Assembly: GCF_003790525.1 (NCBI RefSeq)
Contig: NZ_CP033635.1
Length of the DNA stretch: 64,000 nucleotides
Reading direction: 5' to 3' (one strand)
Origin: Escherichia coli
GTDB lineage: Bacteria > Pseudomonadota > Gammaproteobacteria > Enterobacterales > Enterobacteriaceae
The position numbers and the translations under genes are program-made. Positions 18,522 to 23,467 of the stretch are shown piece by piece. Every line of letters begins with the position of its first letter. Position 1 is the stretch's first letter. The notes under the pieces were generated by a model, which worked only from the letters and a program-made list of their open reading frames with translations, ran no database searches and was not told the DNA's origin.

Positions 18522-19235
18522 TCAGAGCGGATTCTTTTTGTTGCGAATCAGGTTGAGGCTTTCAACCGCAATAGAGAAGAACATCGCAAAGTAGATGTAA
18601 CCTTTCGGTACGTGGATGTCGAAACTTTCCAGAATCAAGGTAAAGCCCACCAGAATCAGGAAAGAGAGCGCCAGCATTTTTACCGAAGGATGGCGTTCGA
18701 CAAAATCACCAATCGAGCGTGCGGCGAACATCATCACGCCTACGGCAATCACCACGGCGGCCATCATAATAAACAGGTGATCTGACAGACCCACAGCGGT
18801 AATCACCGAGTCGAGGCTGAAGATAATATCCAGCAGCATAATCTGCACGATAGCGCCGAGGAATGATGAAACGCGTGTTTTCAGCCCTTCTTCTTCACCT
18901 TCAATGGATTCGTGGATTTCCTTGCTGGCTTTCCAGATAAGGAACAAGCCACCCAGAAGCAGAATCAAATCACGGGCGGAAATTTCCTGGCTGAATATTG
19001 TAAAAAGCGGATTTGTCAGGCGCGTAACCCAGGCGATGGATGCCAGCAGCGCCAGACGCATAACCATGGCTCCCGCCAACCCCAGACGGCGCGCATGAGC
19101 ACGTTGTGCTGTGGGGAGCTTTGCCACCACCAGAGAAAGGAAAATAATATTGTCGATCCCAAGAACGATCTCCAGCAGCGTCAGCGTACCGAGCGCAAGC
19201 CAGGCGTTAGGATCGGTTATCCATGCAAATAACAT
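18522..19235 (-). CDS. ygdQ: TerC-family integral membrane protein
   Basis: 237-aa hydrophobic ORF; matches K-12 YgdQ. Confidence 0.85.
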
Positions 19236-19303
19236 CTAAAAAGCCCTGCCAAAAAAATGAAGCGGTAATTATATGCCCGGAAAGCGGCAGGTCAAAGCGA
19301 TGG

Positions 19304-19993
19304 CTACTGGATCAGAAAATGACGGGCCAGTAGCGCACTGGTGAAATTCTTCTTCAAATAAAAGCCGCGCGGCAGCGTCAGAATCCGTTCGCCCCGGACA
19401 CCAATGGCTTCGGTAAGCGCTTTCGCATTCGCTGCTTTCGGTCGTATCTGTAAATATTCCCCGTGACGAGCGGTGATCCGCTCAACCTGACCGAGAACAA
19501 TCATATCCATTAATTCTTCCCAGTCTTCGCGCAGTTGCCGGTCTTCCTCTTCATTCGGGCTCCACAGTAACGGTGATCCTACGCGACGCTGCGCCAGCGG
19601 GATGCTGCGCTCGCCTTCAACCGGTATCCACAGTACGCGTTTGAGCTTGTGGCGCACGTGGCTGGTTTCCCAGGTCACCCCGCTATTACCCGTTAACGGG
19701 GCAACACAAACGAATGTTGTTTCCAGCGGACGACCAAGACTATCCACAGGGATAGTTTTAAGTTCCACGCCCAGAGCAGCAAAATCTTGCTCAGGTTTAC
19801 TCCCTGCGCTGGCACCTAGCCAGATCTCCAGTAACACGCCAATCCAGCCCTTATCGCGTTTTAAATTCTCCGGCGTCACCAGCCCAGCAAGTGCCGCCAG
19901 TTCTCCCAATGTATAACCAGAAAGTTGTTGTGCTTGCGCTAACAATTGTTCTTCAGTTTCGGGAGGAGAGAGCAGTGGGCGAGGTTGGGACAT
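19304..19993 (-). CDS. mutH: Methyl-directed mismatch repair endonuclease
   Basis: 229-aa [36 protein letters not shown]...; matches K-12 MutH. Confidence 0.9.
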
Positions 19994-20149
19994 GTCACGA
20001 TACCTTGGTTAAAAAACAAACAGCAATTATGTGCCGAATATTCGCAGTGTAACTTTTTCCACAGGCGTTGTTCAATTCTCTGATTTATATTGCTTTTTAG
20101 GTTGCCGGTAATCGAGTTGCGCAACACTGCAATGGGTTTTCCAAATCTG

Positions 20150-20540
20150 GTCACTGAAAATAAACAGGATCTTACACCATGTTATCCACAGAAAGCTGGG
20201 ATAACTGTGAAAAACCTCCACTACTGTTTCCATTTACAGCCTTGACGTGCGACGAAACTCCAGTTTTTAGTGGTTCAGTGCTTAACTTAGTGGCACATTC
20301 TGTGGATAAATACGGCATTGGTTGATCTTTCGCCAACCCGTAAATGAGAGGTGTGACCTGGGTCACGAATTACTCTTTTTTATTACTAAAATTACATGTA
20401 ATGCATTGACTGATAATGAATATTTTAAAATGTCCATATCGGGCTTATTCAGAATGCTCCGGGTTTTCCCGTAGTAATTCCGTAGTTCTTCACAACTCTA
20501 TCCACAGAAAAGGTGAATAAAAACGGCTATCCACCCCTTC
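20150..20540. promoter_or_regulatory. DARS2-like DnaA-box cluster in the mutH-rppH intergenic region
   Basis: Perfect DnaA boxes TTATCCACA at 20182-20190 (+) and 20301-20309 (-), near-consensus CTATCCACA at 20498-20506, inside a ~680-bp AT-rich non-coding gap; DARS2 is reported at this locus in K-12. Confidence 0.5.
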
Positions 20541-20677
20541 CTCTGTTTATAACTCTGCACATAACTGTGAGTTATTCAATTGTTATTAGTGTGTAATGCC
20601 CTGCAGAGAGTGGTTTACCGTCTTCCTGGAGTATGAAACAATCATTCGTATATAAAGCTTTATTTTGAGGTAGTCCG

Positions 20678-21208
20678 GTGATTGATGACGATGGCTACCG
20701 CCCAAACGTAGGTATCGTGATTTGTAATCGCCAGGGGCAGGTAATGTGGGCCCGGCGATTTGGTCAGCACTCCTGGCAATTTCCGCAAGGCGGAATCAAC
20801 CCCGGAGAATCCGCAGAGCAGGCGATGTACCGTGAATTGTTTGAAGAAGTAGGATTAAGCCGTAAAGACGTTCGAATCCTTGCTTCAACGCGTAACTGGT
20901 TGCGCTACAAATTACCGAAACGTTTGGTGCGTTGGGACACGAAGCCGGTTTGTATCGGCCAAAAACAAAAATGGTTTCTCTTGCAGCTGGTGAGCGGCGA
21001 TGCAGAAATCAATATGCAAACCAGCAGTACACCAGAGTTTGACGGCTGGCGATGGGTAAGTTACTGGTATCCGGTCAGACAGGTGGTGTCATTTAAACGT
21101 GATGTCTACCGTAGAGTAATGAAAGAGTTCGCGAGTGTGGTGATGTCACTGCAGGAAAATACGCCAAAACCACAAAACGCATCTGCTTATCGACGTAAAA
21201 GAGGTTAA
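20678..21208 (+). CDS. rppH: RNA pyrophosphohydrolase (Nudix)
   Basis: 176-aa ORF, GTG start, Nudix box [22 protein letters not shown]. Confidence 0.9.
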
Positions 21209-21220
21209 GTCACGCCAATT

Positions 21221-23467
21221 ATGCTCACTCGCCTGCGCGAAATAGTCGAAAAGGTAGCCAGCGCACCACGCCTGAATGAGGCGTTAAATATTCTGGTTAC
21301 CGACATCTGTCTTGCGATGGATACCGAGGTCTGTTCGGTTTACCTTGCCGATCATGATCGACGTTGTTACTACCTGATGGCGACCCGGGGGCTGAAAAAA
21401 CCACGCGGTCGCACTGTAACGCTCGCGTTTGATGAAGGGATCGTCGGCCTGGTTGGCAGGCTGGCGGAACCGATAAACCTTGCAGATGCGCAAAAGCACC
21501 CCAGCTTCAAATACGTCCCCTCCGTAAAAGAAGAACGTTTCCGCGCATTTTTAGGCGTACCAATTATTCAACGTCGCCAGTTGCTTGGTGTACTGGTGGT
21601 ACAGCAACGAGAGTTGCGCCAGTATGACGAAAGTGAAGAATCCTTCCTGGTGACGCTTGCCACCCAGATGGCAGCTATTCTTTCTCAGTCGCAGTTGACT
21701 GCCTTGTTTGGACAATATCGCCAGACGCGAATCCGCGCATTACCGGCAGCACCTGGTGTGGCGATTGCCGAAGGCTGGCAGGATGCCACGTTACCTTTAA
21801 TGGAACAGGTGTATCAGGCATCAACGCTGGATCCAGCTCTGGAACGCGAACGACTGACCGGGGCGCTGGAAGAAGCGGCAAACGAGTTTCGCCGCTACAG
21901 CAAACGCTTTGCCGCCGGTGCACAAAAAGAAACGGCGGCTATTTTCGATCTTTACTCGCACCTGCTTTCGGACACCCGGCTGCGTCGCGAATTGTTTGCC
22001 GAGGTTGATAAAGGCTCGGTGGCAGAGTGGGCGGTAAAAACGGTCATTGAAAAATTTGCCGAACAGTTTGCCGCGCTAAGCGATAACTATCTCAAAGAGC
22101 GGGCTGGCGATTTACGTGCGCTGGGCCAGCGATTGCTGTTTCATCTTGATGACGCTAATCAAGGGCCGAACGCCTGGCCGGAACGTTTCATTCTGGTGGC
22201 AGATGAACTGTCAGCGACAACGCTTGCTGAGCTGCCCCAGGATCGCTTAGTCGGTGTTGTCGTGCGCGATGGCGCTGCCAACTCCCATGCTGCGATCATG
22301 GTACGTGCGCTGGGGATACCTACCGTGATGGGCGCGGATATTCAGCCTTCGGTACTGCATCGTCGGACGCTGATCGTCGATGGTTATCGCGGTGAATTGC
22401 TGGTCGATCCGGAGCCGGTACTGCTGCAAGAATATCAGCGGCTAATTAGTGAAGAGATCGAGCTTAGCCGTCTGGCGGAAGATGACGTCAATTTACCCGC
22501 CCAGTTAAAAAGCGGCGAACGCATTAAAGTCATGCTCAATGCCGGTTTAAGCCCGGAACATGAAGAAAAACTGGGCAGCCGTATTGATGGCATAGGACTT
22601 TATCGCACTGAAATCCCATTCATGCTGCAAAGTGGTTTTCCGTCGGAAGAAGAACAGGTGGCGCAGTATCAGGGGATGCTGCAAATGTTCAATGATAAAC
22701 CCGTCACCTTGCGTACGCTGGATGTCGGAGCAGATAAGCAGCTGCCTTACATGCCGATCAGCGAAGAGAATCCATGCCTGGGTTGGCGTGGGATTCGCAT
22801 TACGCTCGATCAGCCGGAGATCTTCTTGATCCAGGTGCGGGCGATGCTGCGTGCTAATGCCGCTACGGGCAACCTGAATATTCTGTTGCCGATGGTCACA
22901 AGCCTCGATGAAGTTGACGAAGCACGCCGCCTGATTGAACGTGCCGGACGTGAAGTCGAGGAGATGATCGGTTACGAAATTCCCAAACCACGTATCGGCA
23001 TCATGCTGGAAGTGCCGTCAATGGTATTTATGCTGCCGCATCTGGCAAAGCGGGTCGATTTCATCTCTGTTGGCACCAACGATCTGACGCAATACATCCT
23101 GGCTGTTGATCGCAACAATACCCGGGTGGCGAACATTTATGACAGTCTTCATCCTGCAATGTTACGAGCTCTGGCGATGATCGCCCGGGAAGCGGAAATA
23201 CATGGAATCGATCTCCGTTTGTGCGGTGAAATGGCGGGCGATCCCATGTGCGTGGCAATCCTCATTGGGCTTGGGTATCGCCATCTGTCTATGAACGGAC
23301 GTTCTGTAGCGCGCGTAAAATACCTGCTGCGGCGCATTGATTTTGCTGAAGCAGAAAATCTTGCGCAGCGTAGTCTGGAAGCGCAACTGGCGACCGAAGT
23401 TCGCCATCAGGTTGCAGCCTTTATGGAGCGTCGCGGCATGGGCGGGCTGATTCGCGGAGGGTTATAG
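21221..23467 (+). CDS. ptsP: Phosphoenolpyruvate-protein phosphotransferase PtsP (EI-Ntr) with N-terminal GAF domain
   Basis: 748-aa ORF 13 bp after rppH; PEP-utilising enzyme I motifs. Confidence 0.9.
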   Translation: MLTRLREIVEKVASAPRLNEALNILVTDICLAMDTEVCSVYLADHDRRCYYLMATRGLKKPRGRTVTLAFDEGIVGLVGRLAEPINLADAQKHPSFKYVPSVKEERFRAFLGVPIIQRRQLLGVLVVQQRELRQYDESEESFLVTLATQMAAILSQSQLTALFGQYRQTRIRALPAAPGVAIAEGWQDATLPLMEQVYQASTLDPALERERLTGALEEAANEFRRYSKRFAAGAQKETAAIFDLYSHLLSDTRLRRELFAEVDKGSVAEWAVKTVIEKFAEQFAALSDNYLKERAGDLRALGQRLLFHLDDANQGPNAWPERFILVADELSATTLAELPQDRLVGVVVRDGAANSHAAIMVRALGIPTVMGADIQPSVLHRRTLIVDGYRGELLVDPEPVLLQEYQRLISEEIELSRLAEDDVNLPAQLKSGERIKVMLNAGLSPEHEEKLGSRIDGIGLYRTEIPFMLQSGFPSEEEQVAQYQGMLQMFNDKPVTLRTLDVGADKQLPYMPISEENPCLGWRGIRITLDQPEIFLIQVRAMLRANAATGNLNILLPMVTSLDEVDEARRLIERAGREVEEMIGYEIPKPRIGIMLEVPSMVFMLPHLAKRVDFISVGTNDLTQYILAVDRNNTRVANIYDSLHPAMLRALAMIAREAEIHGIDLRLCGEMAGDPMCVAILIGLGYRHLSMNGRSVARVKYLLRRIDFAEAENLAQRSLEAQLATEVRHQVAAFMERRGMGGLIRGGL

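Follow-up and report, generated by a model that had tools for sequence, protein, structure and literature searches.

The spacer between mutH and rppH in the 64-kb window (the whole stretch of DNA analysed) is, judged from its sequence, almost certainly the DARS2 element of Escherichia coli SMS-3-5, an ortholog of the K-12 element that is identical to it at each experimentally defined essential site. Through that identity of all essential sites, we infer DARS2 function in this strain from K-12. In fast-growing E. coli, DARS2 is the main element by which ATP-DnaA is restored ahead of every round of chromosome replication; the original DARS paper is Fujimitsu (2009). Any interpretation of this region depends on its correct annotation. 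Earlier publications already cover the element with its parts, its conservation in E. coli and even its presence in SMS-3-5, and what we add is a map that sets the published parts at exact coordinates of the sequence (Table 1).

Table 1. Features of the mutH-rppH locus in window coordinates, in order of position.
Feature	Position	Strand	Remark
mutH	19304-19993	-	left neighbour of spacer
DARS2, 455 bp	20089-20543		both primers exact, at 20089-20107 and 20525-20543; K-12 2969112-2969566
FBS6	20119-20133	-	non-essential; sequence after PMC8682772 Fig. S1
Second core-like triple box, around box VI	20170-20204	+	TCTTACACC-atg-TTATCCACA-gaaag-CTGGGATAA
ygdT, annotated CDS, 48 aa	20179-20325	+	RefSeq; overlaps boxes VI and V
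DnaA box VI, perfect	20182-20190	+	between native parts of Ksh-34/Ksh-35
LexA (SOS) box-like palindrome, TACTGTTTCCATTTACAGCC	20221-20240		between boxes VI and V; 228 bp from mutH ATG
FBS2-5 region	20288-20339	-	52-nt FBS2-5 oligonucleotide of Miyoshi 2021 exact
DnaA box V-a, low affinity	20290-20298		within FBS2-5 region
DnaA box V, perfect	20301-20309	-	within FBS2-5 region
FBS2-3	20310-20334	-	FBS3 20313-20327, FBS2 20320-20334; includes 'crucial 21-mer' 20310-20330
DnaA box V-b, low affinity	20311-20319		within FBS2-5 region
Minimal DARS2 ('delta-Right' construct)	20311-20543		primers MutH-11 at 20311-20331, MutH-4 at 20525-20543
DnaA box V-c, low affinity	20322-20330		within FBS2-5 region
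FBS1, GAGTAATTCGTGACC	20361-20375	-	inside oligo FIS-1U; non-essential in K-12
IBS2, TAATGCATTGACT	20399-20411	+	one mismatch to IHF consensus
IBS1, TAAAATATTCATT	20415-20427	-	one mismatch to IHF consensus; 3 bp from IBS2
DnaA box IV, TTATTCAGA	20445-20453	+	one mismatch; between native parts of mutagenic primers Ksh-30/Ksh-31
DARS2 core, 35 bp	20486-20520		bounded exactly by boxes III and I; MutH-14/MutH-15 flanks; MutH-9/-10 homology arms flank same 35 bp
Core DnaA box III, TTCTTCACA	20486-20494	+	one mismatch, position 3; head-to-tail with box II across 3 bp
Core DnaA box II, CTATCCACA	20498-20506	+	one mismatch, position 1
Core DnaA box I, TTATTCACC	20512-20520	-	one mismatch, position 9; head-to-head with box II across 5 bp
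rppH	20678-21208	+	right neighbour of spacer; also ygdP/nudH

The window matches E. coli SMS-3-5 at 100% identity, and its gene order is that of K-12 (tas-ygdR-ygdQ-mutH / rppH-ptsP-lgt). The spacer (19994-20677, 684 bp) has a G+C content of 0.39, against 0.51 for the window. Compared with K-12 MG1655 it shows 6 substitutions over its 684 positions and no indels; none of the differences falls in the core, IBS1-2, FBS1-5 or boxes I-VI. We found the locus in 5424 of 5426 complete E. coli genomes, and SMS-3-5 is already among the 59 genomes with DARS2 that have been catalogued (PMC4585315 supplement). Table S3 of that study gives the values 33, 23, 50 and 11 for SMS-3-5 and 33, 21, 50 and 10 for MG1655, the second of which would be the DARS2 distance, going by the MG1655 coordinates. 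A conserved relative distance from oriC, ~21% of the genome in MG1655, counts as a mark of DARS2; oriC itself lies outside the window.

Published DARS2 primers and oligos were taken from Kasho 2014 (PMC4245941 supplement), Miyoshi 2021 (PMC8682772 supplement) and Frimodt-Moller 2015 (PMC4585315), and each of them matches at its expected place in the spacer. Published drawings of the element are the reverse complement of the window, with the core at the left and mutH at the right. The two lambda-Red primers of PMC4585315 are printed on the same strand, which we took as a quirk of the listing because their arms enclose the very 35 bp that Kasho's delta-Core primers delimit. Compared with DARS2 of K-12 MG1655 (NC_000913.3, 2969112-2969566; Fujimitsu 2009, Kasho 2014, Miyoshi 2021, Kasho 2025), the window has the same locus, the same neighbours and the same length of 455 bp, with 452 of 455 positions identical and no indels; no change affects boxes I-VI, the low-affinity boxes V-a to V-c, IBS1-2 or FBS1-5. 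The three SNPs lie at 20133, 20381 and 20435. The first replaces a C of K-12 by T within FBS6 (ATTGCAGTGTTGCGC here, GTTGCAGTGTTGCGC in K-12) with loss of a consensus G, the second flanks FBS1, and the third falls between IBS1 and box IV. The earlier note on this DNA had proposed a DARS2 ortholog in the mutH-rppH spacer, to be checked by alignment to the published element, and the proposal was right. Its range of 20150-20540 takes in boxes VI to I and leaves out no more than FBS6 and the final bases of the fragment. The IHF and Fis sites that it did not place were located, from the published oligos and sequences and by consensus matching, as IBS1-2 and the FBS sites.

We considered whether box-like words might have clustered by chance in AT-rich intergenic DNA. 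The window holds exactly two perfect TTATCCACA boxes, VI on the plus strand and V on the minus strand, both of them in the spacer, and since 12 of 100 shuffles contained two or more, that window-wide count is within chance and unremarkable. The local density is another matter: seven boxes with at most one mismatch to TTATNCACA, the two perfect ones and five more, fall within the 455 bp of DARS2, where the rest of the window leads one to expect 0.37 (Poisson P ~1e-7). No other 455-bp stretch of the window holds more than three, none of 5000 composition-matched simulations reached seven, and the same boxes stand at fixed positions in ~30 genera, so that we give a chance cluster no credence. The description from which we started, two perfect boxes in opposite orientation with further near-consensus boxes in an AT-rich gap of ~680 bp, is borne out by these counts and by a spacer of 684 bp with 39% G+C. 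The perfect boxes that it stressed are real, but they are the accessory boxes V and VI; the core deleted in published mutants consists of three one-mismatch boxes, and the perfect pair is not the catalytic core.

That core reads TTCTTCACA-act-CTATCCACA-gaaaa-GGTGAATAA and is the window's best match to the architecture box, 3 bp, box, 5 bp, inverted box, with 1, 1 and 1 mismatches. Its equivalent is the segment removed in the published delta-Core mutants (PMC4245941, PMC4585315), and the core has been described as boxes I and II head-to-head and box III head-to-tail, each with one mismatch (PMC11724364). Over 30 other species of Enterobacterales the mean identity of the core is 91%. Among Enterobacterales and Vibrionaceae, 38 species have a core with one mismatch per box at a distance of 153-170 bp upstream of rppH. 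Most other lineages show nothing closer to the core than 8-13 mismatches in the 1 kb upstream of rppH, and Pasteurellaceae and Aliagarivorans carry core-like modules at different distances from rppH. The departures from consensus are themselves maintained: position 9 of box I is A in 0 of 31 sequences, and position 1 of box II is C or A, with T in 0 of 31. The eye-catching perfect boxes are accessory and the working core is weak, with one mismatch per core box conserved across ~30 genera, which fits the published finding that strengthened boxes lead to untimely initiation. We also tried CTATCCACC at 20527-20535 as a core box and rejected it; it lies outside the deleted core and is unconserved, with a mean of 5.9 mismatches across species.

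Between the core and the Fis sites, IBS1 and IBS2 are the only matches to TAANNNNTTGATW in the spacer at up to one mismatch, where 0.37 would be expected. Both are identical to K-12, for which IBS2 has been given as AGTCAATGCATTA in MG1655 (PMC4585315 Fig. S10), and their 3-bp separation is as published (PMC4245941). The centre of the pair, at 20413, is 90 bp from the centre of the core and 93 bp from that of FBS2-3. FBS2-3 is likewise identical to K-12, the F23U oligo matching exactly at 20305-20342 and the MutH-24/MutH-25 deletion corresponding to 20310-20330. IBS1-2 and FBS2-3 are each essential for DARS2 activation in K-12 (PMC4245941), and occupancy by IHF and Fis has been observed there by ChIP-qPCR (PMC4245941, PMC8682772). 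The minimal DARS2 is enough to stimulate initiation from a plasmid, and boxes IV-VI are dispensable for this stimulation (Kasho 2014, PMC4245941). Box IV has a mean of 4.1 mismatches across species and is unconserved beyond Escherichia and its close relatives. FBS1 is the sole full match to GNNYANNNNNTRNNC in the spacer and is poorly conserved (38%).

By analogy with K-12, the element would work as follows. ADP-DnaA would occupy the three weak boxes of the core, the molecules on boxes I and II facing head-to-head and a head-to-tail contact from box III stabilising them, and ADP would be released. The core alone would be poorly active; IHF at IBS1-2 would bend the DNA and bring Fis at FBS2-3, which lies about equally far from the bend as the core, to the DnaA dimer, stimulating ADP release. 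Negative supercoiling would favour this aided release, and the ADP-free DnaA would then take up ATP. When ATP-DnaA is high, oligomers extending from box V over V-a to V-c would displace Fis and switch the element off, while box VI and its right-half surroundings would not be needed for reactivation. In K-12, ADP release requires the core, IBS1-2 and FBS2-3 (PMC4245941), depends on supercoiling and involves weak core boxes (PMC11724364), and DARS2 raises ATP-DnaA and origins per mass in vivo (PMC4245941, PMC11724364). ATP-DnaA oligomerises at FBS2-5 in K-12 and displaces Fis, a negative feedback through box V (PMC8682772). DARS2 is non-essential and its deletion phenotypes are mild (PMC4585315, PMC11331064).

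Boxes V and VI are each invariant in 30 of 31 sequences, and one may ask if the locus acts chiefly as a passive sink that titrates DnaA through these two perfect boxes, as in the classical view of datA. DnaA ChIP-seq peaks in K-12 lie at 2969124, 2969306 and 2969501 (PMC11317965; the table is labelled NC_000913.2, but its coordinates and quoted boxes fit NC_000913.3 and were used as version 3). The last of these, the strongest of the locus at 213-fold, corresponds to ~20154 in the window and adjoins box VI. The regions of boxes V and VI, at 199- and 213-fold, reach the level of oriC and datA (PMC11317965), single-molecule work attributes much chromosomal DnaA titration to datA, DARS1 and DARS2 together (PMC12371093), and both boxes are invariant across genera. 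Extra copies of DARS2, however, stimulate initiation and do not delay it, and what they need is the weak core and not boxes IV-VI (PMC4245941). Titration may coexist with reactivation, but it leaves the conserved arrangement of core, IBS and FBS sites unexplained, and as the chief role of the locus we hold it to be very unlikely. Box VI and its surroundings are probably a strong site of DnaA binding or titration and part of the mutH control region.

The gap had been called non-coding. It does lie between mutH and rppH, but the RefSeq CDS ygdT spans both perfect boxes. One rival reading is that ygdT encodes a real 48-aa protein, which would explain the conservation, with the DnaA boxes in it incidental. 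RefSeq annotates ygdT in K-12 (b4610), in SMS-3-5 and in all E. coli genomes listed; the frame is intact in the E. albertii and E. coli sequences and of full length in one of two Citrobacter. Across 30 Enterobacterales, on the other hand, the start codon is replaced in 16 (by CTG, GGG, TAT, CAG, AAG, AGG or TAC), and the length of the reading frame varies between species from 9 to 76 codons. Conservation at the three codon positions is 0.72, 0.68 and 0.75, the third being the most conserved and relaxation there thus absent, and the conserved 'peptides' are TTATCCACAGA, TGGGATAAC and ATTTACAGCCTTGAC in translation. There is no NCBIfam model for ygdT, and literature matches to the name were misprints of YdgT or unrelated. 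We judge from this comparison that ygdT is not a conserved protein-coding gene, and a protein as the source of the conservation is scarcely credible; the RefSeq CDS overlies DARS2 without comparative support. The earlier note had named, as evidence that would refute DARS2, boxes that fall within a small transcribed gene and are not bound by DnaA. With the ygdT frame unconserved and the sites strongly occupied by DnaA in K-12 ChIP-seq (PMC11317965), the assignment to DARS2 is not refuted.

The right half of the locus, although called 'dispensable', shows conservation no lower than that of the minimal element. The strongest conservation of the whole locus falls at 20160-20262, outside the minimal element, and the published model leaves it unexplained. 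Part of it is a putative second triple box around box VI, with the spacing and orientation of the core and 316 bp away from it, which is the window's second-best match to the core architecture (mismatches 3, 0 and 3). The triple box lies 469-486 bp upstream of rppH in 29 species, and ~1 Mb of fetched loci contained no matches with six or fewer mismatches outside rppH upstream regions. It may be read as a second copy of the core geometry; this reading is our own, and the copy is not named in the DARS2 literature that we found.

Between boxes VI and V lies the LexA-like palindrome, of the form CTGT-N8-ACAG (20224-20239) with an AT-rich centre. CTG-N10-CAG is retained in 30 of 30 Enterobacterales with the mutH-rppH arrangement, and Photobacterium and Aliagarivorans have a LexA-like box in the equivalent position. 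The number of LexA motifs in the window is within chance (2 found, 0.58 expected) and not significant alone; the case for this box rests on conservation and the literature. Salmonella mutH has one LexA box 228 bp upstream with a heterology index of 12.99, and 3.58-fold induction by nalidixic acid in RNA-seq (PMC8072944), and in V. parahaemolyticus LexA binds the mutH promoter region in EMSA (PMC3323433). The box of Salmonella Typhimurium is thus at the same 228 bp from the ATG and of the same CTGT-N8-ACAG form as ours; in the Salmonella and Vibrionaceae papers it is regarded as part of the mutH promoter, and DARS2 goes unmentioned. We found no report of LexA binding at the E. coli mutH box, and no LexA-DARS2 link in two papers containing both terms or in the abstract of a third. 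No consensus-type promoter stands beside the box on either strand, and by inspection none there is conserved across species. It is possible, if rather doubtful, that the right half (~20160-20310) is more than spacer and forms a conserved composite module of control, with a candidate LexA operator flanked by the perfect boxes and with box VI set in a second, weaker DARS core geometry. If LexA does bind in Enterobacterales, DARS1 (at uvrB) and DARS2 (at mutH) would both be meeting places of the SOS repressor and DnaA, and DNA damage would be coupled either to the expression of mutH or to how fast DnaA is reactivated. A conserved LexA-like box inside DARS2 is a cheap and testable lead.

A related proposal is that the box cluster is mainly a transcriptional operator, at which bound DnaA (and LexA) would control the divergent promoters of mutH and rppH in the manner of uvrB and DARS1, without reactivation. 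DARS1 overlaps the promoter uvrBp3, which is repressed by DnaA and LexA (PMC6015884). The position of the LexA-like box fits the proposal, as do Photobacterium, where the mutH start is only ~46 bp away from box VI and 87 bp away from the LexA box, and the presence of more weak DnaA boxes directly upstream of the conserved rppH promoter. The core, however, is at least 130 bp from the promoter-like elements that we found, and for the identical K-12 sequence ADP release and regeneration of ATP-DnaA have been demonstrated in vitro and in vivo (PMC4245941, PMC11724364). As the main function an operator is highly improbable. An operator role for the right half is plausible in addition to DARS2 function and not plausible as a replacement for it.

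The DARS1 core of K-12, in the bioD-uvrB intergenic region, reads TTATCCACT-attcc-TGTGGATAA-cca-TGTGTATTA (1608-1642 of the retrieved locus), that is, box I, 5 bp, inverted box II, 3 bp and box III, which is the geometry of the DARS2 core read on the minus strand. Each of the two elements lies upstream of a DNA-repair gene and has a LexA-type box in its intergenic region. In DARS1, box II is perfect, the boxes are of higher affinity, and neither IHF nor Fis is needed, whereas every box of the DARS2 core carries one mismatch and its activity requires IBS1-2 and FBS2-3 (PMC11724364). Outside the core we saw, by inspection, no evident similarity between the two. Like DARS2, datA is a non-coding cluster of DnaA boxes with an IHF site whose timed occupancy sets the nucleotide state of DnaA (PMC8682772, PMC11724364), but at datA ATP is hydrolysed on head-to-tail oligomers of ATP-DnaA, while at DARS2 ADP is released through a head-to-head pair and Fis is also needed.

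The spacer was also searched for RNA and transcription signals. An Rfam scan of 19000-21500 at a permissive E-value returned only a nematode snoRNA inside mutH (E = 0.56), which we took as noise, and RNAalifold on the rppH leader of 16 species gave two trivial pairs and no conserved RNA structure. A consensus promoter and terminator scan of the spacer yielded one mutH promoter-like site on the minus strand (20053-20026) and two terminator-like hairpins, not exceeding the numbers in shuffles. Two invariant blocks upstream of rppH are better read as a -35 (TTTACC) and an extended -10 (TGnAACAAT) element, and further weak DnaA boxes lie just upstream of this conserved rppH promoter.

The earlier note read a cluster of DnaA boxes in the mutH-rppH spacer as the ortholog of DARS2, the DnaA-reactivating sequence of K-12. 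Published DARS2 primers and oligonucleotides were placed on the window to define the parts of the element, and because these reagents all map onto it, the DARS2 interpretation is supported; the original observation is also confirmed. The spacer, with ptsP after rppH and ygdQ, ygdR and tas on the far side of mutH, differs from that of K-12 MG1655 by six substitutions and no indels, and is 100% identical to that of E. coli SMS-3-5; of 5426 complete E. coli genomes, 5424 carry it with at least 95% identity. The alignment to the published core that had been proposed as a check was performed: the primers MutH-14 and MutH-15 and the lambda-Red arms of Frimodt-Moller et al. enclose the identical 35 bp, and the range given at first, 20150-20540, covers boxes VI to I. 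Three of the differences from K-12 lie inside the published 455-bp fragment, which spans 20089-20543, and the one at 20133 (T in the window, C in K-12) is alone in touching a named site, where the consensus G of the Fis site FBS6 is lost; FBS6 is non-essential (PMC8682772). The published subFBS6 mutant includes this base change among its substitutions. DARS2 has been described before, even for this strain, which belongs to a set of 59 genomes surveyed previously (PMC4585315).

We found that the gap is AT-rich (39% G+C vs 51% for the window) and, as first described, carries two perfect TTATCCACA boxes in opposite orientation, the only two in 64 kb, together with further near-consensus boxes. 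The bare count of perfect boxes is within chance, since 12 of 100 shuffles reach two. In contrast, the clustering exceeds chance. A 455-bp segment contains seven boxes that differ from TTATNCACA at no more than one position, against an expectation of 0.37 (P ~1e-7); other 455-bp stretches of the window hold a maximum of three, and a count of seven was never attained in 5000 composition-matched simulations. One correction to the first reading is worth recording: its perfect boxes correspond to accessory boxes V and VI of the published element, and the core is made up of the three weak boxes at 20486-20520. In K-12, DARS2 stimulated initiation without needing boxes IV-VI (PMC4245941). The weak trio agrees with the published DARS2 core, in which boxes I and II are opposed, box III is head-to-tail with box II, and each has a single mismatch and low affinity (PMC11724364). 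DARS1 of K-12 has the same core geometry, TTATCCACT-5-TGTGGATAA-3-TGTGTATTA.

Features of the mutH-rppH region (window positions)
Feature	Position	Strand	Remarks
mutH	19304-19993	-	
mutH-rppH gap	19994-20677		684 bp
Second core-like module	20170-20204	+	TCTTACACC-atg-TTATCCACA-gaaag-CTGGGATAA; surrounds perfect box VI
ygdT CDS	20179-20325	+	RefSeq; 48 codons (b4610 in K-12); overlies boxes VI and V
Box VI	20182-20190	+	Perfect; bracketed by its mutagenic primers
LexA-box-like palindrome	20221-20240		TACTGTTTCCATTTACAGCC; fits CTGT-N8-ACAG; between boxes VI and V, 228 bp from mutH ATG
FBS2-5 oligonucleotide	20288-20339		52 nt; sequence match
Box V	20301-20309	-	Perfect
Crucial 21-mer	20310-20330		Between MutH-24 and MutH-25
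Minimal 'delta-Right' element	20311-20543		Bound set by primer MutH-11
IBS2	20399-20411		IHF consensus, at most one mismatch
IBS1	20415-20427		IHF consensus, at most one mismatch; 3 bp from IBS2
Box IV	20445-20453		Bracketed by its mutagenic primers
'delta-Core' deletion	20486-20520		35 bp; between MutH-14 and MutH-15
Box III	20486-20494	+	TTCTTCACA; one mismatch
Box II	20498-20506	+	CTATCCACA; one mismatch; 3 bp from box III
Box I	20512-20520	-	GGTGAATAA (minus-strand reading TTATTCACC); one mismatch; 5 bp from box II
rppH	20678-21208	+	

A scan for IHF and Fis motifs, also proposed as a check, placed the published sites. IBS1 and IBS2 were the only IHF-consensus matches in the spacer with at most one mismatch, and exact sequence served to locate FBS1, FBS2, FBS3 and boxes V-a, V-b and V-c. 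Measured from the centre of IBS1-2, the core centre is 90 bp away and that of FBS2-3 is 93 bp away, spacings that fit the published model in which an IHF bend carries Fis to the DnaA molecules paired on the core. We infer the mechanism here from K-12, where others showed it for the identical sequence. The core would assemble ADP-DnaA, whose nucleotide pocket would be opened by head-to-head contact of the box I and box II molecules, stabilised from box III; both IHF (IBS1-2) and Fis (FBS2-3) would be needed, with negatively supercoiled DNA as the best substrate, and the resulting apo-DnaA would rebind ATP. When high, ATP-DnaA would oligomerise from box V and evict Fis, as box V has been shown to nucleate the ATP-DnaA oligomers by which Fis is displaced (PMC8682772). 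Strong DnaA ChIP-seq peaks are reported in K-12 at 2969124 (78-fold), 2969306 (199-fold) and 2969501 (213-fold) (PMC11317965), and these correspond to window positions ~20531, ~20349 and ~20154. A perfect, terminator-like palindrome, GTGACC-tg-GGTCAC (20353-20366), overlaps FBS1 and is poorly conserved beyond Escherichia. The spacer has two GATC sites, both almost invariant across genera, one abutting the box VI module (20168-20171) and one inside FBS2-3 and box V-c (20324-20327).

The gap was initially described as ~680 bp and non-coding; the length holds, but RefSeq annotates the CDS ygdT across both perfect boxes. Of 30 Enterobacterales species, 16 have another codon in place of the ygdT start, the frame closes after 9 to 76 codons depending on species, conservation by codon position (0.72, 0.68, 0.75) is highest at the third position and so not coding-like, and the conserved 'residues' are translated DNA motifs. 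With neither an NCBIfam model nor literature on ygdT found, the gene is probably an annotation artefact. The earlier note had also raised the prospect of boxes inside a small gene with no DnaA binding; we looked for this and did not find it, as ygdT is without comparative support and DnaA strongly occupies these sites in K-12 by ChIP-seq (PMC11317965).

We compared 120 loci that a single search of representative bacterial genomes returned for a degenerate RppH N-terminus pattern. mutH adjoins rppH in 35 loci, and among 31 Enterobacterales having the pair, 30 have the genes divergent with a 673-712-bp spacer. The exception, at 617 bp, is Pantoea sp. Nvir, a stink-bug symbiont with a reduced genome that kept the adjacency and lost every DARS2 box. 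Vibrionaceae spacers measure 561-600 bp, the Enterobacterales surplus sitting between box VI and mutH; distances to rppH from the core, the box VI module and the LexA box each vary by <20 bp. The core triple box lies 153-170 bp upstream of rppH with mismatches of 1,1,1 in 34 species and a total of four in 4, its hosts including Escherichia, Citrobacter, Enterobacter, Kluyvera, Pluralibacter, Serratia, Yersinia, Pantoea, Erwinia, Hafnia, Edwardsiella, Pectobacterium and others, as well as Photobacterium and Salinivibrio. Within 1 kb upstream of rppH, the best match in Xanthomonadales, Betaproteobacteria and other lineages without the element had 8-13 mismatches. In the sampled Morganellaceae (Photorhabdus, Providencia, Arsenophonus; four loci), mutH is not next to rppH, and a core-like module was absent both from that 1 kb and from the rest of the fetched loci. 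In Pasteurellaceae and Aliagarivorans, core-like modules are present and their distance from rppH is different. In five Haemophilus and Rodentibacter loci, which have neither an adjacent mutH nor a LexA-like box, the module has a perfect middle box (e.g. TCAATCACAattTTATCCACAgaaatATTGAATAA) and lies ~300-336 bp upstream of rppH, with a tandem box pair ~67-94 bp upstream.

The core mismatches are themselves conserved across ~30 genera: the first base of box II is C or A and never T, the last base of box I is C, T or G and never A, and box III is TT(C/T)TNCACA. One conserved mismatch per core box suggests selection for weak boxes, in agreement with the excess, untimely initiation seen when stronger boxes were substituted (PMC11724364). 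When 30 species were aligned with MAFFT, identity to the window averaged 91% for the core, 100% for box V, 73% for the FBS2-3 21-mer, about 55% for IBS1 and IBS2 (where the conserved positions are the consensus ones), 38% for FBS1 and 35% for FBS6; box IV was not conserved.

The most conserved part of the spacer, 20160-20262 (~90% identity over 30 species), is in the mutH-side right half, outside the minimal element and beyond the published DARS2 model. Here box VI is the middle of a second module with core geometry, in the same orientation and 316 bp from the core, which is the window's second-best match to the core architecture (6 mismatches: 3,0,3). In 29 species this module is again present, with 4 to 6 mismatches, at 469-486 bp upstream of rppH, and no match with at most 6 was found outside rppH upstream regions in ~1 Mb of fetched loci. 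Its weak flanking words, TCTTACACC and TGGGATAA, are almost invariant. The 'double box' CTTACACCAtgTTATCCACA was noted by Stringer et al. (PMC11317965), and no mention of the inverted third box or the parallel to the core was found in the accessible literature.

The same block contains a LexA-box-like palindrome. Its CTG-N10-CAG form lies 432-449 bp from rppH and was retained by 30 of 30 Enterobacterales that have mutH and rppH paired. Photobacterium and Aliagarivorans have it at the same relative place with diverged flanks and in a more canonical-looking form (e.g. AACTGAGTATTTATACAGTA). It is absent upstream of Pasteurellaceae rppH, where mutH is not adjacent, and thus the box tracks mutH. 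Earlier papers assign this box to mutH: a published listing gives Salmonella mutH one LexA box 228 bp upstream, the distance found in the window, with a heterology index of 12.99 and 3.58-fold induction by nalidixic acid (PMC8072944), and in V. parahaemolyticus an EMSA showed LexA binding to the mutH promoter region (PMC3323433). No LexA-DARS2 link was found in the accessible portions of literature naming both; a close parallel is DARS1, which overlaps uvrBp3 and is bound by LexA and DnaA (PMC6015884). The second module and the LexA-like operator are leads for bench tests. A promoter scan found no consensus promoter adjoining the palindrome, and the adjacent ATTTACAGCCTTGAC is nearly invariant.

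On the rppH side, a strongly conserved block (20544-20577) lies just beyond the 455-bp fragment. Within it is TGTTTATAA (minus strand TTATAAACA, one mismatch), which 29 of 31 sequences share without change and which Salinivibrio also has; Photobacterium has TTATGAACA there. The block further includes an inverted repeat, ATAACTgtgAGTTAT; ATAACTGTGA occurs also at 20201-20210. Yersinia, Serratia and Hafnia have tandem TTATCC words in this region. RNAalifold found no conserved RNA structure in the rppH leader. Further on, GGTTTACC (20609-20621) and TGTGAAACAATCA (20631-20647) are invariant from Escherichia to Vibrionaceae. Their spacing is that of a -35 (TTTACC) followed by an extended -10 (TGnAACAAT), and on this reading rppH transcription would begin near 20649.
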